Shown here: positions 9,556 to 63,795 of the stretch, in pieces
Layout: the number at the start of each line of letters is the position of its first letter
Position numbering within the stretch: the first letter of the stretch is position 1
Source of the DNA: Candidatus Falkowbacteria bacterium RIFOXYC2_FULL_36_12
Lineage (GTDB): Bacteria; Patescibacteriota; Patescibacteriia; UBA11705
Assembly (NCBI GenBank): GCA_001778235.1
Contig: MFGJ01000007.1
Span: 77,085-141,084, forward strand
DNA: 64,000 nt
Direction of reading: 5' to 3'
Program-made: the position numbers and the translations under genes
Notes under the pieces: generated by a model
Databases searched by the model: none
What the model was told of the DNA's origin: nothing
Seen by the model: only the letters and a program-made list of their open reading frames with translations

Positions 9556-9644
9556 GATTTCCTCCCTGCCTCGGTTTTTGATTGAATGAACGAACTATAT
9601 AATATCTTATCAAAATAAACTCTAATTGTCAATATTTATTGCCA

Positions 9645-9677
9645 ACAAAAAAACCAGCATTTTGCAATACTGGCTTT
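9645..9677. terminator. Hairpin terminator-like repeat copy 1
   Basis: A7-CCAGCATTTTGCAATACTGG-CTTTT. A near-identical copy lies at 9925-9958. Confidence 0.5.
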
Positions 9678-9685
9678 TGGATTGT

Positions 9686-9883
9686 TTATTCACTGTCTTT
9701 TTTTTCTTTGATTTTTTTTGCTATCTCGGCTAAAAGAGCCCCTGTAAATGCTTCACCTCTAAAGGCTTCACCCCTTTCTAATATCCTCTGTCCTTCAGCT
9801 AACTCTTCAGGAGTAAGATCATCAAACCCATTAATAACTCTTTCTGGTGAATTTGGATTTTCAAAATCTGGCATAATTTTCAT
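9686..9883 (-). CDS. Hypothetical small acidic protein
   Basis: 65-aa ORF flanked on both sides by the same hairpin repeat. No SD; TATAAT sits 8 nt upstream of the ATG. Confidence 0.3.
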   Translation of the reverse strand: MKIMPDFENPNSPERVINGFDDLTPEELAEGQRILERGEAFRGEAFTGALLAEIAKKIKEKKDSE

Positions 9884-9924
9884 AGTTATTTATTATAAAA
9901 ACAGTATAACACAATAATCATTAA

Positions 9925-9958
9925 ACAAAAAAACCAGCATTTTGCAATACTGGCTTTT
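9925..9958. terminator. Hairpin terminator-like repeat copy 2
   Basis: Identical 30-nt core to the copy at 9645-9677. Confidence 0.5.
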
Positions 9959-9993: not shown

Positions 9994-10344
9994 TTATCTC
10001 TGTGCAAAAACTGTACTTGAATCAAGATAATAAATTGATGTATTTTCAACAAAATTTTCCTGACCTACTCTCTCGGAAATATTCTGCATAGATTGTAATT
10101 GATACATCTGCAGTTCCAATTTGTGATTGGTGTCAGTCAATTCTGCGACTTGTTTCTCAAGATCGCGAATTTCATAGCCTTTTGTTGAAAGATTGTTGAC
10201 TGAAAATAAATAGAAACCAATGGAGACAACGCTAACAACAATCAGTAAAAAACTCAAAATTTTTCTATTGTTAAATAAATTCTTCTTTTTTGCCACCTTG
10301 CTTTTGCGAGTGCTTTTGTTATTGCTTGTACAATATTTAGTCAT
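9994..10344 (-). CDS. ftsL: FtsL-like septum formation protein
   Basis: Basic N-terminus, a single TM helix, then a coiled coil. Positioned downstream of mraZ-rsmH as in dcw clusters. Confidence 0.5.
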   Translation of the reverse strand: MTKYCTSNNKSTRKSKVAKKKNLFNNRKILSFLLIVVSVVSIGFYLFSVNNLSTKGYEIRDLEKQVAELTDTNHKLELQMYQLQSMQNISERVGQENFVENTSIYYLDSSTVFAQR

Positions 10345-12772: not shown

Positions 12773-12949
12773 TGAAATAACCTGCCTTTCGGCAGACGGG
12801 ATTATTTGTCATATTAAGCTTGAAAGCTTCGCAGAGTACCCCCGGATCAAGTCCGGGGCATGCTTTAAGACAGGCTCTGTAAGCAGGTAAAGAAGAATTA
12901 TACCCTGAAATCCATCTTCGTTAAAACTTCGATGGACAAGCAAATTCAG

Positions 12950-13056
12950 GGTGACAAGTGTGAGGTGGTGACAAGTGTGAGGTGGTGACAAGTGCGAGGT
13001 GGTGACAAGTGCGAGGTGGTGACAAGTGATTGATGGTGACAAGTGGGGTTATTTTT
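12950..13056. repeat. Tandem array of about 6 copies of the 17-bp unit GGTGACAAGTGYGAGGT
   Basis: Directly visible. Copies are contiguous with no spacers. The array lies between tsaB and the downstream ORF. Confidence 0.9.
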
Positions 13057-13477
13057 TACTTTTGGTAATATTAGGTTTTTTGCCATATTCAGGAATAGCG
13101 ATCTGCTTGAACGAATTGTTGGTTGTCTTTTTGGAGACTTTCAGACCATCGGACCAAACCTTTTCCATTTTTTGTTTTTCCTCAAGTCCTAAATAGATTT
13201 TTTTTAATTTAATCCCATAAACCGGAATATCTAAACCATAAGCCAAAGCATTAGCAGTAGCACAACCAATACGCAAGGCTGAAAAATCACCAGGGCCAAT
13301 CACCACAAATATTTTTTCCAACCCTGACAAATCAGCTGAAATAATCTGTTTGATTTCTTTTAACAATAGCTCCGACTGCTTGAAAGCCTGATTAATGGTT
13401 TTCATTTTTGTAATATTCTCTTGTCCAATTGCAATAGAAAAACAAGAATTTGACTCTGTTGATATAAGTAAATTCAT
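13049..13477 (-). CDS. tsaB: tRNA t6A biosynthesis protein TsaB (short form)
   Basis: LISTESNSCFSIAIG … VVIGPGDFSALRIGCATANALAYGLDIPVYG matches the TsaB/YeaZ N-domain. Start taken at MNLL. Confidence 0.65.
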   Translation of the reverse strand: MNLLISTESNSCFSIAIGQENITKMKTINQAFKQSELLLKEIKQIISADLSGLEKIFVVIGPGDFSALRIGCATANALAYGLDIPVYGIKLKKIYLGLEEKQKMEKVWSDGLKVSKKTTNNSFKQIAIPEYGKKPNITKSKK

Positions 13478-31265: not shown

Positions 31266-33836
31266 TTAATTTTTGTCAATATTTTTCTTCAGCTGTTCAA
31301 TTTTTTGCAAAGCTTCAATCGGAGTAATAGCATTCGGATCAATTTTCATTAATTCCTTGGCTAGCCTCTCTTCTCGCGGAGAAAATTCCAAAGATTTCTG
31401 AACTGGTTTAGTTATTGTCAGATTTGACTTTGCTTCTAGTTCGCGAAGTACTTCTTCAGCTCGGTCAATTATTTTATCTGGTAAACCAGCTAATTTGGCA
31501 ACTTCAATGCCATAACTGTCACTGGTTGCGCCTCGGATAATCTTATGAAGAAAAACAACTTTTCCCTGATTTTCTGACACAGCCACACAATAATTTTCAG
31601 CTCGGGGTAATTTCGCAACTATATCAACTAATTCATGATAATGAGTGGCGAACAAAGTTTTTGCTCTGATTTGGTTATGAATGTATTCTACAATAGACCA
31701 AGCAATACTAACACCATCAAAGGTTGAAGTCCCACGACCAATTTCATCAAGCACAATCAAAGATCTTTCAGTGGCATTATTAATAATATTGGCAGCTTCC
31801 TGCATCTCATTCATAAAGGTTGAAACACCCTGACTCAAATTGTCACTGGCTCCAACACGAGTAAATATCCGATCAACAAGACCAATCTCGGCTGACCTAG
31901 CAGGGACAAAACTTCCAGTCTGTGCTAGCAATGTGATCAAGGCAACCTGACGCAAATAACTGGACTTGCCCGACATGTTCGGACCGGTAAGTAAAATCAT
32001 TTCATTTTTTTCATGATCAAATTCTGTATCATTCGAAACATAGCGATCAGCTAATCGTTCAATGACAGGGTGACGGCCATCTTTTATGATTATCCGACCA
32101 TTAGCATTGACAACAGGCTTGCAGTAATCATTGGCGCGGGCCAGAATGAAAAAACCTAAAACCAAATCAAGTTCAGCGATTTGCCTGGCAGAATTTTGGA
32201 TTTCAGCAAAATATTTTACTACTTTTTCTCTTAGTTCCTGAAAAATCTGGTATTCAATATGGGAAATTTTGTCTTCAGCACCAAGAACTTTTTCTTCATA
32301 CTCTTTTAATTCTGGCGTAATAAATCTCTCCGCATTGACCAAAGTCTGCTTCCTAATATAATTTTCTGGGACAGCATTTAATTTTGTATTACTTATCTCA
32401 ATATAATAACCAAATACTTTGTTATATTTAACTTTCAGCGATGAAATCCCAGTATTTTTTATTTCCTGTGCCTGCATTTCCAAAATCCAGTCTTTGCCAC
32501 CACGAGAAATTTGCCGGAGCTGATCAAGTTCAGCATTATAACCATCTTTTATCATCTGACCTTGATTCAAAGTAATTGGCGGTTCATCAACCAAGGTCTC
32601 TTCGATTAATTTTATTACTGATTCATGCGAGACTAAATTGGAATTTATATCTGTGAATTTCTGCTGTTGCAATTCGACCAGTAATAATTTCAGAGGATTG
32701 ATTAATTTCAGACTATGTTTCAAAGCTACAAGATCCCGAGCATTGGCACGACCACAACCGATCTTGCCAACTAGGCGTTCAAAATCAGACATTTGCTTTA
32801 ATGACTCAATAATTTTTATGGCAATAGGTACTGTATTAACTAATTCTTCAACCGCATTAAGTCTATCAGTAATTTGATTAAGATTTATAAAAGGCAAAAG
32901 TAAACTACGGCGCAGAGCCCGACCCCCCATAGCTGTAATGGTCTGGTCCACTACCTGAAGCAAACTGCCATCAGTAGAAAATGTCCAATTATTTTGCAAT
33001 AACTCTAGATTTCTAATAGTAGCCTGATCTAAAGTCATAAAATTTTCTATAGCATAACGCTTCATGGTAAGAATATGATCCAAGGCGGTTTTCTGGGTTT
33101 CTTTCAAGTATCCCAGTAAATTCCCCGCACTTTCAATTGCCACGGGTAGTTCATTTAGACCAAAACTGGAAAGATTCTTTACCTTGAATTGCTCAACTAA
33201 ACTACGATCAGCTTTTTCAAAAGCTGGCAATTTGTAAACATTAAGATTTTTTAACCCAGCAATAAATTCAGTTAAACGGCTATCATTTATCAATTCTGGA
33301 GTAACAATTATTTCACTTGGCTTTAATCTGGCTAATTCATTTTTCACAACTTCTAAATTGAGAATTTCAGTTGCTTGGAAATCTCCAATCGTCAAATCGC
33401 AAACTGCAAAGCCCCAAGTATTTTTCTGCAAACTCAAACTGACAAGATAATTGTTCTGCCTGTTGTCTAAGACTGAATCATTCATGGTTGTACCTGGGGT
33501 AACCACACGCACAACTTCGCGCTTCACAATCCCAGGCAACGATGGATCACTAATCTGCTCACAGATAGCAACTCGTTTGCCAACTTTTGTTAATTTGGCA
33601 ATGTAATTTTCAGCTGCGTGATAAGGGATTCCGCACATTGGTGTTTCATTTTCAGTGCCTTTGGCTCTCTTGGTTAAAGTAATATTTAGTATTCCAGAAG
33701 CTTCCCTAGCATCCTCACCAAACATTTCATAAAAATCACCCATGCGAAAAAACAAGATATCTTTGGGATATTTTTGTTTTATCTCATAATATTGTTGGAA
33801 CATTGGAGTTGGCATAACTAAATTATACTTTAACAA
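31266..33836 (-). CDS. mutS: DNA mismatch repair protein MutS
   Basis: Mismatch-binding N-terminus (FFRMGDFYEMFGEDA) and a C-terminal Walker A ABC ATPase (GPNMSGKSS). The start may be the internal MPTPMFQQY. Confidence 0.95.
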   Translation of the reverse strand: MLKYNLVMPTPMFQQYYEIKQKYPKDILFFRMGDFYEMFGEDAREASGILNITLTKRAKGTENETPMCGIPYHAAENYIAKLTKVGKRVAICEQISDPSLPGIVKREVVRVVTPGTTMNDSVLDNRQNNYLVSLSLQKNTWGFAVCDLTIGDFQATEILNLEVVKNELARLKPSEIIVTPELINDSRLTEFIAGLKNLNVYKLPAFEKADRSLVEQFKVKNLSSFGLNELPVAIESAGNLLGYLKETQKTALDHILTMKRYAIENFMTLDQATIRNLELLQNNWTFSTDGSLLQVVDQTITAMGGRALRRSLLLPFINLNQITDRLNAVEELVNTVPIAIKIIESLKQMSDFERLVGKIGCGRANARDLVALKHSLKLINPLKLLLVELQQQKFTDINSNLVSHESVIKLIEETLVDEPPITLNQGQMIKDGYNAELDQLRQISRGGKDWILEMQAQEIKNTGISSLKVKYNKVFGYYIEISNTKLNAVPENYIRKQTLVNAERFITPELKEYEEKVLGAEDKISHIEYQIFQELREKVVKYFAEIQNSARQIAELDLVLGFFILARANDYCKPVVNANGRIIIKDGRHPVIERLADRYVSNDTEFDHEKNEMILLTGPNMSGKSSYLRQVALITLLAQTGSFVPARSAEIGLVDRIFTRVGASDNLSQGVSTFMNEMQEAANIINNATERSLIVLDEIGRGTSTFDGVSIAWSIVEYIHNQIRAKTLFATHYHELVDIVAKLPRAENYCVAVSENQGKVVFLHKIIRGATSDSYGIEVAKLAGLPDKIIDRAEEVLRELEAKSNLTITKPVQKSLEFSPREERLAKELMKIDPNAITPIEALQKIEQLKKNIDKN

Positions 33837-33856
33837 AAATATACTTTTTTTTCACC

Positions 33857-33884
33857 TTGACAATTAAGCTGGAAATGCTATATT
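33857..33884 (+). promoter_or_regulatory. Sigma70-type promoter (TTGACA-N16-TATATT)
   Basis: Directly visible. It is divergent from the mutS start. Confidence 0.5.
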
Positions 33885-33919
33885 ATCAACATCCTCGAGA
33901 AACAACAAGGGGAAAAAGA

Positions 33920-34120
33920 ATGAAAACCACAAGAGAGTATTATTCTTCTGTATATTTCCAGTTGAAATTTGGGACAAATTGTCATCATCCTGCTTGTTGT
34001 CGTCAGCGAGCTGAATATCGGAAAATTCGTCAATTCCCAGACTGCAGTAAGGATTGCAAGAAAGGTCTAAGTGAGCTAACTCCAGAGTGTCGGGAAAAGC
34101 CATTTCTAGTTAAAAATTAA
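33920..34120 (+). CDS. Small Cys-rich protein (66 aa)
   Basis: AAGGGGAAAAAG SD then ATG. Downstream of the consensus promoter and followed by a hairpin/T-tract. Six Cys residues. Confidence 0.4.
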   Translation: MKTTREYYSSVYFQLKFGTNCHHPACCRQRAEYRKIRQFPDCSKDCKKGLSELTPECREKPFLVKN

Positions 34121-34123
34121 ACA

Positions 34124-34160
34124 AAAACCCAGTCTTTAGTAAAGTCTGGATTTTTATTTG
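34124..34160. terminator. Bidirectional terminator
   Basis: A5-CCAGTCTTT-agt-AAAGTCTGG-ATTTTTATTT. Confidence 0.5.
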
Positions 34161-34167
34161 GTAAAAA

Positions 34168-34485
34168 TTATACTTGTGGTTTGTTTTCATCATTCATTTC
34201 ATTTTTTGGTTCTTCAACCGGCAATTCTACTGTGGGTGAATTTTGTTCAGTAGAAGTACTGATTGAGTCTTTTTTTTCTTCTTCTGTATCTGGCATTAAA
34301 TTTACTTCTGGCGTCTGATCAACCATTGGCGCAGGGACTTCATTTTCTTCTGCTTGGACAGGTTCAGCATCACATTTATTACAGATATTTGGATTTTTTT
34401 CTGATCGTTTTACACCCAAAATTTTGGAAAAACCTGAAAGGAATCCTCCAATTGGCGCCCCGCACTTTTCGCATTTTTTTTCCAT
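34168..34485 (-). CDS. Zinc-ribbon protein with acidic tail
   Basis: CEKCGAP…CNKCD four-Cys ribbon, followed by a Glu/Pro-rich low-complexity tail. Confidence 0.5.
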   Translation of the reverse strand: MEKKCEKCGAPIGGFLSGFSKILGVKRSEKNPNICNKCDAEPVQAEENEVPAPMVDQTPEVNLMPDTEEEKKDSISTSTEQNSPTVELPVEEPKNEMNDENKPQV

Positions 34486-34526
34486 AGGTTTGCAGTTAAT
34501 AATAGTTATTTAAAATTATTGTTTAA

Positions 34527-34829
34527 TTAATCTAGGTTGAATCTATTTCGAATTTTTTTAATTCTATCTTTTTCAGCAAAATCAGGCTCTGGTTCAATTC
34601 CGCCCCCTGGCATTGAAACCAACTGTGCTGAAATTACCTGTTTTAAGAATTCAATATCTTTTGGAGTTATCTTCCCAGTATGTAATTTTTTTTCAATTTT
34701 TTTTAATTGCGCCATTGTCTCATGAGGAACCAAAGGTGGACCTGAACGCTCTTTTTGCTGGAGCTTGTATTCTCTAACTCCATTTTCATCAAAACCCTGA
34801 TTGAATTCTTGTGGTCGTGGTAAAGCCAT
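34527..34829 (-). CDS. Hypothetical protein
   Basis: 100-aa ORF. Its start lies immediately after 69-bp repeat copy 1. Confidence 0.5.
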   Translation of the reverse strand: MALPRPQEFNQGFDENGVREYKLQQKERSGPPLVPHETMAQLKKIEKKLHTGKITPKDIEFLKQVISAQLVSMPGGGIEPEPDFAEKDRIKKIRNRFNLD

Positions 34830-34833
34830 ATTC

Positions 34834-34902
34834 TTTATATTAATTTAATACTGCTTTTATTCTACGAATTCCAGCTGAACTGGATTCTTCTTTTTTTATT
34901 TG
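34834..34902. repeat. 69-bp perfect direct repeat, copy 1
   Basis: Identical to 35605-35673. Contains the GAATTCCAGCTGAACTGGATTC hairpin. Confidence 0.95.
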
Positions 34903-35594
34903 TCTTTACCTTTATTCCAAGCTGTTTCAGCCTGCCAACCAACCAAAATTCTTGTTGGGACATCTACCCGGATCAGCTTTTCAGTGGCTTTTTCCGAAAA
35001 ACCCTCTTTCACCACATAACTCATCTCAACCAATGATTTGTCAACTGAAAATTTACCTACCTGCGCCCTACGCCAGGCTCCATTTGCATCGCGAATCATA
35101 AGCTCCGTTGCTTCTTTGTCCCATTTATTAAATAAATCATTGCCGTATTTGGCTACAACATCAGCTTCTTTGTTTACATAGTCGCGATCCACCCCTAAAT
35201 TTTGCATAATTTCCCGCTGCCAATTCATAAATACTGTTTGTGGCACAGTCATCATTGATTTAATGCCGCCATCTTCAACCATTTCTACTTTCACATTCTT
35301 TTCATCTGAACCCACAATTTTTGCCTGAACCCAGCCATTATCCACTCCACCTCTAATCGCCACTGTCGCCTTGGCATCTATCAAAGAATGTAATTTACCC
35401 ATGTCACCGGTACTTATCATTAACATTCTTGAAAAATAATTTATTGCATCCTGCTCTGCCCTGTTAGCCCTTTCAGACTTTGTTAGCATGGGAGCTTTTA
35501 TACTTTCTGTTATTGGCTCTTGTTGAGACGAAACAGTTTCCTGTGTTTTTTCCTCCACACCTTTTTTCCCAAATAATTTTTCTAAAAAACCCAT
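34896..35594 (-). CDS. Hypothetical protein bracketed by 69-bp repeats
   Basis: 232-aa ORF. No motif recognised. Confidence 0.55.
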   Translation of the reverse strand: MGFLEKLFGKKGVEEKTQETVSSQQEPITESIKAPMLTKSERANRAEQDAINYFSRMLMISTGDMGKLHSLIDAKATVAIRGGVDNGWVQAKIVGSDEKNVKVEMVEDGGIKSMMTVPQTVFMNWQREIMQNLGVDRDYVNKEADVVAKYGNDLFNKWDKEATELMIRDANGAWRRAQVGKFSVDKSLVEMSYVVKEGFSEKATEKLIRVDVPTRILVGWQAETAWNKGKDK

Positions 35595-35604
35595 AGATTT
35601 GTTT

Positions 35605-35673
35605 TTTATATTAATTTAATACTGCTTTTATTCTACGAATTCCAGCTGAACTGGATTCTTCTTTTTTTATTTG
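35605..35673. repeat. 69-bp perfect direct repeat, copy 2 (encodes alaS C-terminal 20 aa + stop)
   Basis: Identical to 34834-34902. On the minus strand it translates to QIKKEESSSAGIRRIKAVLN*. Confidence 0.95.
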
Positions 35674-37461
35674 GAAATGCCCAAGTTCGCCGGTGTGTTC
35701 TACATGAGGACCGCCACACATTTCAGCTGAAACATCACCAACTGTATACACTTTTACTATATCACCATATTTATCCTCAAACAAACCTGTAACCTTTTTT
35801 TCCCGAGCTTCATCATAAGGTAATTCTTGGCAGATAACTTGGTAATCTGCTTCAATCCATTTGTTTACTAAATCTTCAACTTTTTTGATCTGCTCTGGGG
35901 TCATCTTGTCTGGATGAGTAAAATCAAATCTTAATCGTTCTTCAGTTATGTTACTGCCTTTTTGATTAACATGCTTGCCAAGAACTTGACGCAAAGCTGA
36001 ATGAAGTAGATGAGTAGCTGTGTGAAGCTTCATGGTAGCGTCAGAGTGTTCGGCGAGGCCACCCTTGAATTTCTTTTCTGATCCATGGCGGGAGAGATTT
36101 TGGTGTTTGACAAATTCTGAATTGAATTCTGCTTCATCAATATTAATCCCCTTTTCCAAAGCTAATTCTTCGGTCATCTCAAGTGGAAAACCATAGGTTG
36201 AAAATAAAATAAAGGCTTCATGACCAGAAATTTTATTGCCTCTGGACATTTTTTCAAACTCTTTCAAACCTTTTTCTAATGTCTTGGCAAATTTCTCTTC
36301 TTCACTGGTAATTTCAGCTAATATCTGGTCTTTTTTACTATCAATCTTATAAATTTCTGAATAATAATTTATGTATTCTTCGACAATTTGATTGGCAAAA
36401 GATTTTTCAATACCTAGTTGATGAGCATAACGAACTGACCGACGAATCAAGCGACGAGTAAAATATCCTTGGTCCACATTTGAAGGGTTTGCTCCATCAA
36501 AAATTAATAAAGTGGCGGCTTTCAGATGATCACAAATAATACGGAAAGCTTTGTTATCATCAGCATTTGCATCATATTTTTTACCTGAAATATCTTCCAA
36601 TTTTCTAATGGCTGTTTGGAACAAATCAATATTAAAAATATCTGGAGAATCAATGGCAGCCATAGTCATCCGTTCTAATCCGCCACCAAAATCAACATTT
36701 TGTTGAGGCAATTGTTCAAAACCAGTTTTAGTTTTTATATATTGCATGAAAACATTGTTGCCGATTTCAATAAACCGACCGCAGTCGCAATTGACATGAC
36801 ATTTTTGTTTTGAAAACTGTGAATTTTCATGAATTTGTTTATCAACGCCAAAATCCCAGAAAATTTCTGAATCTGGACCACCTGGTTCTCCGACTGGCAT
36901 GCTTGAGCTAATACCGGCACGACTCCACCAATTTTTAGTTTCATCATAGTAAAAAATCTTGCCATCTTGCATGCCATTTTCTGTGACATTTTCAACTGCT
37001 TTGGCCTCAATCCCAAGTTTTTTGAATTCTTCTTGCCACAATTGTACGGCATCATCATCTTTCGGGATGTTGATATCTAGCTTACCACCGAAAACTGTAA
37101 TGAATATTCTATTTGGGTCAAGTTTTAATTCCTTTGTAAGAAATTCAAACATCCAAGATATTTGTTCTTTCTTGAAATAGTCTCCCAAACTCCAATTACC
37201 AAGCATTTCAAAACAAGTAGTATGACGATTGTCCCCAATTTCATTAATGTCCTGTGTCCTAAAACATCTTTGGGAGTCAGCAATTCTGACACCTAAAGGA
37301 TGTTTTTCTCCAAGCAAGTATGGAATCATTGGTTGCATGCCAGCGCTAGTAAATAATGTTGTTGGATCATTTTCTGGCAAAAGTGAAGCAGAAGGAATAA
37401 TTGCATGTCCTTTGTTTTTGAAGAAATCTAAATATTTTTGTCGTAATTCATGAGTTGTCAT
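35611..37461 (-). CDS. alaS: Alanine--tRNA ligase (short form lacking C-Ala domain)
   Basis: Class II catalytic core plus editing-domain motifs (HTATHLLH…CGGPHV). 616 aa. Confidence 0.9.
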   Translation of the reverse strand: MTTHELRQKYLDFFKNKGHAIIPSASLLPENDPTTLFTSAGMQPMIPYLLGEKHPLGVRIADSQRCFRTQDINEIGDNRHTTCFEMLGNWSLGDYFKKEQISWMFEFLTKELKLDPNRIFITVFGGKLDINIPKDDDAVQLWQEEFKKLGIEAKAVENVTENGMQDGKIFYYDETKNWWSRAGISSSMPVGEPGGPDSEIFWDFGVDKQIHENSQFSKQKCHVNCDCGRFIEIGNNVFMQYIKTKTGFEQLPQQNVDFGGGLERMTMAAIDSPDIFNIDLFQTAIRKLEDISGKKYDANADDNKAFRIICDHLKAATLLIFDGANPSNVDQGYFTRRLIRRSVRYAHQLGIEKSFANQIVEEYINYYSEIYKIDSKKDQILAEITSEEEKFAKTLEKGLKEFEKMSRGNKISGHEAFILFSTYGFPLEMTEELALEKGINIDEAEFNSEFVKHQNLSRHGSEKKFKGGLAEHSDATMKLHTATHLLHSALRQVLGKHVNQKGSNITEERLRFDFTHPDKMTPEQIKKVEDLVNKWIEADYQVICQELPYDEAREKKVTGLFEDKYGDIVKVYTVGDVSAEMCGGPHVEHTGELGHFQIKKEESSSAGIRRIKAVLN

Positions 37462-37514
37462 AGTAGTTGTATATAAAGAAAACAGAAAAGCAAAAAATCA
37501 AAAAACAAATCCGA

Positions 37515-37886
37515 CTAATTGCTGAAATTTTTCAAATGATTTGAAATGTTTTCAATTTCCTTCCAAAGCATTGCTGAGATCTCCTCAGAATAACTTTTAA
37601 GTTTTTGATAATTATCTTCTAACAAATATTTTTCTTCGAATGAAAATTTTAATAAATATTTTGATTCCTGAAGTGATGCAAAAGAAATTTCTAAAAAATG
37701 TAGCCGAGATTTTAGTCTTCCCCTGGCATAACCTTCAATATAATTCAATACAACCGACAAAGATGATCTTCTAAATTGTGAAGTCACCCCAAATGTTTCT
37801 TCTTTCGGGAATATTTTTGTTACTTTATAAACCCCATGTACATAAACATCCATTTTGTCACAAAGCTTTTTTTGGTAGTCATTCAT
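37515..37886 (-). CDS. Four-helix-bundle protein (23S rRNA intervening-sequence protein family)
   Basis: Family pattern …FP.EE.FG..SQ.RRSS.SV..N..EG…K… Paralog of the gene at 63424-63795. Confidence 0.7.
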   Translation of the reverse strand: MNDYQKKLCDKMDVYVHGVYKVTKIFPKEETFGVTSQFRRSSLSVVLNYIEGYARGRLKSRLHFLEISFASLQESKYLLKFSFEEKYLLEDNYQKLKSYSEEISAMLWKEIENISNHLKNFSN

Positions 37887-38011
37887 AGTCGTGATTTCAT
37901 GATTTCTGGATTTTTTGATTTATTTTATACTTCATACATCATATTCTATCTTATTTTTGCAATTTTATCAAATTATCTTGCACTTTATTTTCCTAGATAA
38001 CAACGCCATTA

Positions 38012-39082
38012 TTACTTAATTACCCCTCCGCCAAGACACTCTTTGCCTTTCCAAAACACGGCATACTGACCTGCAGTGATAGATTTCTGGGGGCTTTTAA
38101 ACTGAACAATATATTTATTCAAGTGATTTTTCGTAATAACTGCCTTGAATGCTTTCTGCGCAGAGCGAACCTTACATTTGACATTTATTGGCAATCTTGG
38201 TTCATCAACAATCCATTCAATACTATCAAGAATCAGGCTTTCAGACTCCAGTAAATCTTCATTGGTTGTTACCCATAGGGTGCTTGAAGCTAAATCTAGC
38301 CTAGTAACAAACCATGGTCCGTCAGCTAACCCAATGCCTTTTCTTTGTCCAATTGTGTACTTTTGCAAACCAGAATGCTGACCCAGTGTTTTTTTAGTTT
38401 CAAGATCTTTTATTGGTCCTGTTTTAAAAGTAAAATATCTAGATAAAAACTGATGCATATTGCCAGAAGGAATAAAGCAAACCTCTTGAGACTCTCGCTT
38501 GCTGGCTGTGGGCAAACCGAATTTGGCGGCAAGTTTGCGTACTTTAGATTTTTTTAATTTTGCAAGAGGAAACATAACATGTTTTAGCTGACCTTGGGTT
38601 AATCTATGCAAAAAATAAGTTTGATCCTTGGCTTCATCCTTGCCCTTGTAGAGATGATATTTATCATCTTTTTCAAATTCAAGTCGTGCATAATGTCCAG
38701 TTGCCAGATAATCAACCCCTAATGCCTTTACTTTGTCTAATGCTTGACCAAACTTAATATAACGATTGCAATCAACGCAAGGATTTGGAGTGTGTCCTGA
38801 TTGGTACTCGGAAATGAACTTATCAACAATTTCTTTTTTAAAATCTACTTCAAGATTTATGGTATAAAATTTTATATTCAATTTTTGAGCAACTCGACGA
38901 GCATCCTGCATTGATTCGAGTGAACAACAGATGTTTTCCCGAACATTACCATCAATTTTTTCTCCCCAAAAATGAAAAAACACACCGATAACATCGTATC
39001 CTTGTTTTTTGAGTAAAGCAGCGGCAACTGAAGAGTCAACCCCACCACTCATACCAACCGCGACTGTGCCTTTTGATTTCAT
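38012..39082 (-). CDS. mnmA: tRNA-specific 2-thiouridylase MnmA
   Basis: PP-loop SGGVDSS, catalytic Cys residues, full-length architecture. Confidence 0.9.
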   Translation of the reverse strand: MKSKGTVAVGMSGGVDSSVAAALLKKQGYDVIGVFFHFWGEKIDGNVRENICCSLESMQDARRVAQKLNIKFYTINLEVDFKKEIVDKFISEYQSGHTPNPCVDCNRYIKFGQALDKVKALGVDYLATGHYARLEFEKDDKYHLYKGKDEAKDQTYFLHRLTQGQLKHVMFPLAKLKKSKVRKLAAKFGLPTASKRESQEVCFIPSGNMHQFLSRYFTFKTGPIKDLETKKTLGQHSGLQKYTIGQRKGIGLADGPWFVTRLDLASSTLWVTTNEDLLESESLILDSIEWIVDEPRLPINVKCKVRSAQKAFKAVITKNHLNKYIVQFKSPQKSITAGQYAVFWKGKECLGGGVIK

Positions 39083-63423: not shown

Positions 63424-63795
63424 CTAACTGTCTGATTTGTTTTTCTTTTTCAATATTGATAAATTAAGACTATAGAGCATCCTACCACATTCATCATATT
63501 GATCCAAAAAATAGTTTAGGCGTTCTTTTTCTAAATAACTTTTACGATGAGCAATCTTCAAATGATGAACAGTTTCCCGTATTTCACCCTGGGCTCTAGA
63601 AATAGATATTGAATAGATTTTCGTATATTTATTACCAAATCCTTCCGCTAAATTTGCAGGTGCTGAATTAGATGACCTTCTAAGCTGTGAACCTATTTCG
63701 TAAAGTTCATATTTGGGAAATTCTAATGTCAAATAATGAATTTCTATAGCCAAATTGAATAATTTATTGTAGACAATCAAATCATCAACCTTCAT
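63424..63795 (-). CDS. Four-helix-bundle protein (23S rRNA intervening-sequence protein family)
   Basis: Same family pattern as 37515-37886 (…FP..E.Y.IGSQLRRSSNS…NLAEG…). Confidence 0.7.
   Translation of the reverse strand: MKVDDLIVYNKLFNLAIEIHYLTLEFPKYELYEIGSQLRRSSNSAPANLAEGFGNKYTKIYSISISRAQGEIRETVHHLKIAHRKSYLEKERLNYFLDQYDECGRMLYSLNLSILKKKNKSDS

Follow-up and report, generated by a model that had tools for sequence, protein, structure and literature searches.

The stretch of DNA analysed here (the window) comprises 64,000 nucleotides from Candidatus Falkowbacteria bacterium RIFOXYC2_FULL_36_12 (contig MFGJ01000007.1, positions 77,085 to 141,084 of the forward strand). In it, a perfect 69-bp direct repeat brackets a 232-codon open reading frame (ORF), ORF232, which lies just downstream of alaS, the gene for alanyl-tRNA synthetase (AlaRS); one copy of the repeat is at the same time the 3′ end of alaS. 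We consider the repeat to be, with a probability of about 0.7, the scar of a recent and lineage-specific insertion, without a function of its own. The event is of a known kind and the locus is a new instance of it. No new machinery is revealed, unless the reading of the locus as a mobile cassette, discussed below, comes to be proven. All genes involved are on the minus strand. The elements of the locus, from high to low coordinates, are the following:

35611-37461, minus strand: alaS, intact, encoding a short alanyl-tRNA synthetase of 616 amino acids (aa), of the candidate phyla radiation (CPR) type (Pfam tRNA-synt_2c, 4.9e-116, and tRNA_SAD)
35605-35673, minus strand: repeat copy 2, which forms the working 3′ terminus of alaS and comprises its last 20 codons (QIKKEESSSAGIRRIKAVLN), its TAA stop and the next 6 nt
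34903-35604, minus strand: the unique insert between the copies, 702 bp, made of a 10-nt leader and of ORF232 up to its third-last codon, and of nothing else
34896-35594, minus strand: ORF232, 232 codons, an orphan
34834-34902, minus strand: repeat copy 1, an orphaned untranslated alaS tail, the first 7 nt of which are the last codons and the stop of ORF232
34527-34829, minus strand: ORF100, the presumed ancestral downstream neighbour of alaS, and positional homologue of a 79-aa ORF found right after alaS in the closest relative

A preliminary description of the locus had reported the repeat, and its exactness was confirmed: the two copies (34834-34902 and 35605-35673) match over 69 bp, with a start-to-start spacing of 771 bp, and the repeat reaches 72 bp (34831-34902 and 35602-35673) if one mismatch is allowed. 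No further copy of the 69-mer was detected in the window at up to 3 mismatches. A 69-bp match was never obtained in 100 dinucleotide shuffles, and not even a 20-mer was repeated in first-order Markov simulations of the window.

The content of the two copies is also as first described. Copy 2 codes for the last 20 residues of AlaRS, whose C-terminus is ...FQIKKEESSSAGIRRIKAVLN, followed by the stop and 6 nt. Copy 1 is identical, but is read in another frame and provides the stop of ORF232. The end of this gene reads ...GGT AAA GAC AAA TAA, and copy 1 starts at the C of the GAC triplet, so that it supplies the last base of an Asp codon, a Lys codon and the stop. Two codons ahead of copy 1 there is a stop codon in the frame of alaS, which means that this copy is under no coding constraint as an alaS tail. 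The same stop, together with the lack of an accessible slippery site, rules out a programmed frameshift joining ORF232 to the AlaRS tail. Altogether, the duplicated block spans from codon 597 of alaS to almost exactly the start codon of ORF100, with 4 nt between the end of copy 1 and the ORF100 ATG (1 nt for the 72-bp version).

As for the insert itself, nothing resembling it was found elsewhere in the window, and no inverted repeat joins its two ends (34903-34925 and 35585-35604). Its identity with the DNA 771 bp away is 27%, i.e. the random level, which rules out a tandem segmental duplication, or a diverged alaS copy, as its origin. ORF232, whose ATG is placed 16 nt past the alaS stop, looks like a real gene. 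We calculated that the chance of a 232-codon open frame at ∼40% GC is ∼3e-7, and the GC content of its first codon positions exceeds that of the second ones (GC1 > GC2), a pattern like that of the neighbouring genes. Its GC content at third positions (GC3, 0.352) is the highest among the window ORFs of at least 200 aa (0.22-0.335 for the others), which may be taken as mild support for a foreign or young origin. The predicted protein has a disordered-looking N-terminus, followed by two internally duplicated domains of ∼70 aa (E = 6e-4 for the duplication), and each domain draws, at equivalent positions, a sub-threshold Pfam match to Tudor_4 or Agenet. A single-sequence AlphaFold model was unusable (predicted local distance difference test score, pLDDT, of 41).

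Mobile-element and phage databases had been named in the preliminary description as the place to look for the 232-aa protein. No recognisable protein of either sort came out of these searches. Among 5.8e9 protein clusters, ORF232 retrieved no sequence but its own and that of a variant differing at one residue. When 1.84e9 representative proteins were scanned in full with HMMER, a single further match appeared, P0006, a highly repetitive 1112-aa protein that was judged spurious as a homologue. No homologue was present in PHROGs, NCBIfam, the PDB sequences or IMG/VR, tblastn gave no match in phage and plasmid collections, an origin from which was rejected, and the PADLOC defence library returned two weak matches only (∼16 bits). 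Judged on its sequence, ORF232 is best described as a lineage-restricted orphan of deviant GC3, as expected of an insert. Separately, a variant of the protein, K102E (window about 35289-35291), was noticed in a second dataset, SRR3989339, with no contig on record; the gene is therefore present in at least one slightly different strain.

To place the insertion relative to an uninterrupted site, the neighbours of the locus have to be considered. On the minus strand the order is mnmA, a four-helix-bundle gene, alaS, ORF232, ORF100, ORF105 and mutS, with the following additional elements:

38012-39082, minus strand: mnmA
37515-37886, minus strand: four-helix-bundle gene of the TIGR02436/23S rRNA intervening-sequence protein (IVP) family, adjoining alaS
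34168-34485, minus strand: ORF105, coding for a zinc-ribbon-like small protein
31266-33836, minus strand: mutS

A scan of the genome collection with AlaRS yielded 80 loci, and only the closest one retains synteny. In this relative (L001, the same as L112; Falkowbacteria CG10_39_11), AlaRS is 73% identical and alaS has a single tail, ending in ...AAAGAAGAATCCAGTTCAGCTGGTATTCGAAGAATAAAAGCAATATTAAATTAA. A 79-aa ORF (ORF79) starts 7 nt after the stop, and is followed by a 73-aa ORF, the ORF105 homologue, the four-helix-bundle gene and mutS. ORF79 has a weak similarity to ORF100 (27% identity, E = 4e-6, in a single targeted pairwise comparison). The arrangement that the preliminary description expected of an empty site, i.e. 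alaS directly followed by ORF100 with one repeat copy, is thus matched in L001 by alaS, one tail and a weak ORF100 homologue. A true empty site in a closer relative would read alaS-TAATATAAAGAAT-ATG(ORF100), with one tail. A second alaS 3′ end downstream of the gene was seen in 0 of 77 relatives; the situation which would have spoken for an ancient arrangement, two diverged copies in the relatives, was therefore not encountered. In ∼957 kb of DNA from relatives, the longest exact direct repeat within 4 kb was 37 nt long, so that a 69-bp duplication of coding sequence is an outlier.

The interval between alaS and ORF105 has a different content in each lineage. In L109 (AlaRS 63% identical; oriented, 889-2004), alaS is followed by a 216-aa ORF, an 84-aa ORF, the ORF105 homologue and mutS, and the two ORFs are unrelated to ORF232 and ORF100. 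ORF105 and mutS therefore form a conserved syntenic anchor on the far side of an interval occupied by mutually unrelated small ORFs: ORF232 and ORF100 in the window (34168-35594), ORF79 and the 73-aa ORF in L001 (3242-3867), ORF216 and ORF84 in L109. As the small genes differ from one relative to the other, this interval is a hot spot of gene turnover.

The age of the duplication can be bounded from the repeat itself. Over the 63 coding nucleotides of the alaS tail, 6 differences separate the window from L001 (57/63 identical), and none separates the two copies. With 0 differences in 69 bp, we estimate a neutral divergence of at most roughly 3-4%. On this count, the duplication appears young, unless gene conversion homogenises the copies.

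The structure was recovered, in part or in full, on 26 contigs, which stem from different samples and from assemblies in ENA, NCBI, JGI and Logan. All 26 belong to one near-clonal Candidatus Falkowbacteria population of the Rifle groundwater (metagenome-assembled genomes of the RIFOXY series). They include MEGAHIT contigs assembled with k127 and k141, i.e. with a k above the repeat length, and one contig of 320 kb. Every complete repeat copy is identical across contigs, and all loci but two, at ∼99.8%, are free of mismatches relative to the window. Two aberrant alaS genes were encountered in this set. The 655-aa version in L087 (1931-3898) is a scaffold-gap artefact (10 Ns and a duplicated overlap). 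The 621-aa version in L084 (529-2394) comes from a contig of low coverage and deviates in about its first 100 residues only; we read it as a chimeric contig start. A third contig is of more consequence: the end (1946-2020) of L089, a 2-kb MEGAHIT k127 contig (ENA ERZ909576), consists of the ORF232 3′ end, the 69-bp repeat and AAACAA. These 6 nt, all that is present beyond the repeat, are the flank normally found after copy 2 and not the ORF100 flank. This end is compatible with a unit-to-unit junction, such as would result from a 771-bp circle or a tandem copy; we take it as a lead, and not as evidence of mobility.

The L089 junction, and the interruption of several contigs (L087, L090, L097, L104) within or at the repeat, could be invoked for an assembly artefact, or for an array of tandem 771-bp units collapsed into one. 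Breaks at this place are nevertheless expected, because assemblers working with k below 69 would produce them. Moreover the same path was obtained by different pipelines and in different samples, in part with k of 127 or 141, and up to the 320-kb contig mentioned above. We hold this explanation to be barely credible, the least probable of all those discussed here.

Next to be considered is whether the repeat does anything. The preliminary description had pointed out an imperfect palindrome inside it, which was found in both copies:

35637-35658 (copy 2) and 34866-34887 (copy 1), no strand assigned: imperfect palindrome GAATTCCAGCTGAACTGGATTC, encoding EESSSAGI

These 22 nt fold as a bulged 9-bp hairpin, and the minimum free energy of the 69-mer is -9.1 kcal/mol (z = -3.0 relative to shuffles). 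In 77 relatives, the synonymous positions of the alaS tail vary freely and the palindrome is not conserved as a nucleotide sequence, from which it follows that it is incidental to the coding sequence; this free variation rules out a conserved DNA or RNA element overlapping the alaS tail. No Rfam family was matched in 33500-38500 at E ≤ 1, and no promoter-like or terminator-like site was seen in the repeat on the coding strand, the antisense strand having only a weak terminator-like hairpin. Short inverted repeats were also noted at both copies. Those of 13 nt, GGTAAAGCCATAT and ATTTGTCTTTACC (34819-34831 and 34898-34910), surround copy 1, with a predicted RNA pairing across the ORF100 start codon, and TTCCCAAATAA and TTATTTGGAAA (35566-35576 and 35667-35677) link the alaS side of copy 2 with codons 7-10 of ORF232. 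They are possibly due to chance in AT-rich DNA.

One could propose from these structures that the repeat acts in cis and that selection maintains both copies, be it as a common leader or translation-coupling region or as a 3′ stabilising hairpin. The same 69-72 nt precede both ORF232 and ORF100, the 69-mer folds better than its shuffled versions, and inverted repeats of 7-13 nt pair across the ORF100 start in the context of copy 1. This proposal is however met by the negative Rfam, promoter and terminator results, by the free variation of the synonymous positions, and by the relatives, which manage with one copy. We find it highly improbable. In the insertion reading that we prefer, the repeat is a scar and shows no sign of function.

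The preliminary description had left the choice between a target-site duplication and a recombination scar resulting from insertion of ORF232. Insertion is supported by the single tail in L001, by the absence of any duplicated tail in the 77 relatives and by the orphan nature of the insert. A classical transposon target-site duplication is excluded, since neither a transposase nor terminal inverted repeats are present and a duplication of 69 bp exceeds the length expected of one. Duplications left by transposons are usually short and of fixed length, about 2-14 bp, and ORF232, the sole ORF of the insert, has no Pfam, NCBIfam or PHROG transposase match. Insertion sequences of the IS1549/IS1634 type do make long and variable target duplications (8-514 bp), but such elements measure 1.5-2 kb, encode a DDE transposase and have defined ends (PMC2266710). 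The locus resembles them in having a target duplication of tens of bp, and differs by its lack of transposase and of terminal inverted repeats.

Three other kinds of element were compared with the locus and discarded. Integron gene cassettes have in common with it a promoter-less ORF (often an ORFan, i.e. an orphan ORF) whose start is a few nt past one repeat and whose end falls within the following one, and repeats in direct orientation that contain an imperfect palindrome. In contrast to an integron, no intI or attI was found in the window, the unit is single, and the repeat belongs to the coding sequence of the host and occurs in the uninterrupted relative as well. An attC reading is ruled out, as only the local 9-bp hairpin is present, without R''/R' core motifs, and no GTTRRRY/RYYYAAC pair was visible by inspection. 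Diversity-generating retroelements (DGR) come to mind because a 3′-terminal coding segment is repeated nearby as non-coding DNA, as in their pairs of variable and template repeats (VR/TR), and because a gene of four-helix-bundle type (an Avd-like fold) adjoins alaS. Here, identity between the copies is 100%, so that adenine-specific differences are lacking, and no reverse transcriptase was found among the 30 large ORFs scanned in the window, which rules this reading out. In addition, a housekeeping synthetase is not a DGR target, and the neighbouring four-helix-bundle protein scores 27.8 bits against the Avd model, for a cut-off of 80. Finally, a hairpin-ended element of the IS200/IS605 type, or a palindrome-associated transposable element (PATE), is ruled out, since the repeat is native alaS sequence, 57 of its 63 nt being identical in the uninterrupted alaS of L001.

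The comparison with integrative elements is closer. Insertion into the 3′ end of a conserved gene, the end of which is rebuilt by a copy carried on the element, is the hallmark of elements using a tyrosine integrase. The two copies could thus be the attL and attR sites of a tiny cassette devoid of integrase, in the manner of cis-mobilisable elements (CIMEs), which retain attL and attR and have lost their integration genes (PMC5704250). A site-specific recombinase, supplied by a helper element or encoded in another part of the genome, would recognise the alaS tail, perhaps through the palindrome, and a 771-bp circle would move in and out. As in such elements, identical direct repeats surround foreign DNA, one copy completes alaS, the displaced native tail is at the far end next to ORF100, and the block of identity stops just past the stop codon. 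Like a CIME, the insert has no integrase of its own. The L089 end could be the junction expected of the excised circle or of a tandem copy.

Several results go in the opposite direction. When 30 large ORFs of the window were scanned against Pfam, housekeeping genes were found, with a few ORFs giving no match, and none of the 30 codes for an integrase, a transposase or a reverse transcriptase. The genes identified were those of PBP2, TGT, MraW, an L,D-transpeptidase, glycosyltransferases, MutL, MutS, RecJ, LepA, MurJ, MreB, Dus and others, and also of a class II aminoacyl-tRNA synthetase (tRNA-synt_2b and HGTP anticodon-binding domain) and a DNA polymerase III delta-prime-like protein. The window contains no tRNA gene, and among these large ORFs no recombinase was found within about 30 kb on either side of the repeat. 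Unlike known attL/attR elements, the 702-bp insert consists of one ORF, without any remnant of integration or transfer genes; neither a cognate integrase nor an autonomous relative was found, and the cargo has no homologue. With a leader of 10 nt and a stop inside the repeat, the insert is an ORF and nothing more, and its derivation by decay of a larger element would need two implausibly precise deletions. Most weight should be given to the fact that a mobilisable family ought to leave relatives, whereas ORF232 is unique in the 1.84e9 representatives and the tail has no second context. IMG/VR does not contain the 23-mer core of the tail, and the palindrome amounts to codons for EESSSAGI, unconserved at synonymous sites. 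As to the L089 junction, with its 6 nt past the repeat, RecA-mediated events or a chimeric read could give the same result. We therefore regard a CIME-like cassette as unlikely.

A bolder version would take the 771-bp unit, made of ORF232 and one alaS tail, as a minimal integrase-less single-gene cassette, which at the alaS 3′ end would pass from an integrated to a tandem or circular form and back. It would be moved in trans by an unrecognised recombinase, or by ORF232 itself, with its two Tudor/SH3-like barrels binding att DNA, and the L089 junction would be its product. To this we attach only a slight probability.

Returning to the insertion reading, the following scheme would account for the locus. 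A DNA fragment of 702 bp, with ORF232 as its single orphan gene and without a promoter, would have been joined in at the alaS/ORF100 junction, in such a way that the last 63 coding bases of alaS, the stop and a short spacer were left on both sides of the insert. The upstream copy would complete alaS, leaving the essential gene untouched. The downstream copy would be a dead alaS tail that by chance gives ORF232 its last two codons and its stop, and through which ORF100 would keep its ancestral leader. ORF232 is presumably read within the alaS operon, because it starts 16 nt from the alaS stop and no promoter-like site is present between the two.

As to how the join was made, we lean to one of two routes, a crossover in a shared alaS tail or an illegitimate joining. 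In the first, which we favour, one reciprocal crossover would have taken place between the chromosome and an incoming circular DNA with the same alaS tail, either att-like and site-specific, or homologous and of the Campbell type. The reason for this preference is the extent of the duplicated block, which starts within the gene and reaches slightly beyond the stop codon, as needed to rebuild the gene. The single crossover of a circle produces perfect direct repeats of the shared segment. As in Campbell-type integration, and also as in homology-facilitated illegitimate recombination, foreign DNA stands beside a homologous anchor and no dedicated recombinase is needed; the circular or donor molecule with an alaS tail is here hypothetical.

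In the second route, a staggered break with nicks 69 nt apart would have been filled in around a captured fragment, giving the same product. Alternatively, homology-facilitated illegitimate recombination with a closely related alaS-ORF232 haplotype, using alaS as an anchor and CAAATAA as a microhomology, would have merged two alternative arrangements downstream of alaS. Such a joining needs no recombinase, which fits the gene content. The upstream boundary of the repeat coincides with the ...C AAA TAA of ORF232, a coincidence that a microhomology joint would explain while leaving ORF232 untruncated. The variability of the interval downstream of alaS among relatives makes alternative haplotypes plausible, and the 8-514 bp duplications of IS1549/IS1634, cited above, indicate that long and variable duplications are known even in true transposons. 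On the other hand, no donor haplotype was found, ORF232 being an orphan, and the microhomology stays putative as long as there is no donor. Homology-facilitated illegitimate recombination, in addition, usually yields insertion-deletions and not duplications. We consider illegitimate joining possible, at a tentative level.

A number of observations count against a recent insertion as we propose it. No empty-site allele was present among the 26 contigs of the population, and since all contigs come from this one near-clonal population, they give no view of polymorphism within the species. The sole 'empty site' is that of a distant relative with an AlaRS 73% identical, and its ORF79/ORF100 match was not recovered by tblastn at 1e-3. 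No donor sequence was found: a search of the JGI metagenome collection with the 69-mer gave nothing, neither empty site nor donor, and the 23-mer core of the tail retrieved from it only more distant alaS genes and, again, the species of L001. Gene conversion could keep old copies identical, and the sequence does not discriminate the crossover from the staggered-break route.

Some further features of the region were noted. AlaRS, at 616 aa, is matched by 80 CPR relatives (L001-L080) over similar gene lengths, about 1.8-2.0 kb, and ends at a conserved KEESSSAG(V/I)RRIKA motif. The E. coli enzyme (∼875 aa) is far longer, and the C-terminal C-Ala domain appears to be missing from the protein of the window. 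The four-helix-bundle protein (TIGR02436/23S rRNA IVP) is one of two such proteins of 123 aa, the second being encoded at 63424-63795, and the two are 29% identical to each other. The L001 homologue of the four-helix-bundle gene is located between ORF105 and mutS and not upstream of alaS, which means that this small gene has moved relative to its neighbours.

The window contains a second perfect direct repeat, of 35 nt (9644-9678 and 9924-9958), which has the form of a terminator-like hairpin and shows runs of T on either strand. Between its copies lies a 65-aa ORF (9686-9883, minus strand) with no homologue beyond its own cluster, an architecture that is the same as that of the alaS case. The 65-aa ORF is just downstream of a 116-aa ORF (9994-10344) which follows mraW, at the usual position of ftsL, and is a candidate for that gene. 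A general mechanism producing bracketed orphans is weakened by the fact that duplicated terminator hairpins flank ordinary genes in relatives (L022, 146 and 830; L039, 8406 and 9887), and the 35-nt repeat may be a recurrent terminator. A 17-nt unit, GGTGACAAGTGYGAGGT, is repeated in tandem about six times at 12933-13062, between, or at the end of, small ORFs of the minus strand.

Being identical over 69 bp and spaced by 771 bp, the two repeats are a substrate for homologous recombination. An exchange between them could remove ORF232 exactly, so that the ancestral site is restored and a 771-bp circle is set free, or could give rise to tandem copies of the gene. The perfect repeats would thus make the acquisition reversible by ordinary recombination, which could yield heterogeneity of presence and absence, or of copy number, within the population. 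Seen as an insertion, the locus would be a clean natural case in which a streamlined CPR genome gains a lineage-specific orphan within a housekeeping operon, without damage to the essential gene: duplication of the target's 3′ end provides the inserted gene with a stop codon and preserves the leader of the gene downstream. It would add a data point on the origin of ORFans, and on the turnover of genes downstream of alaS in Falkowbacteria.

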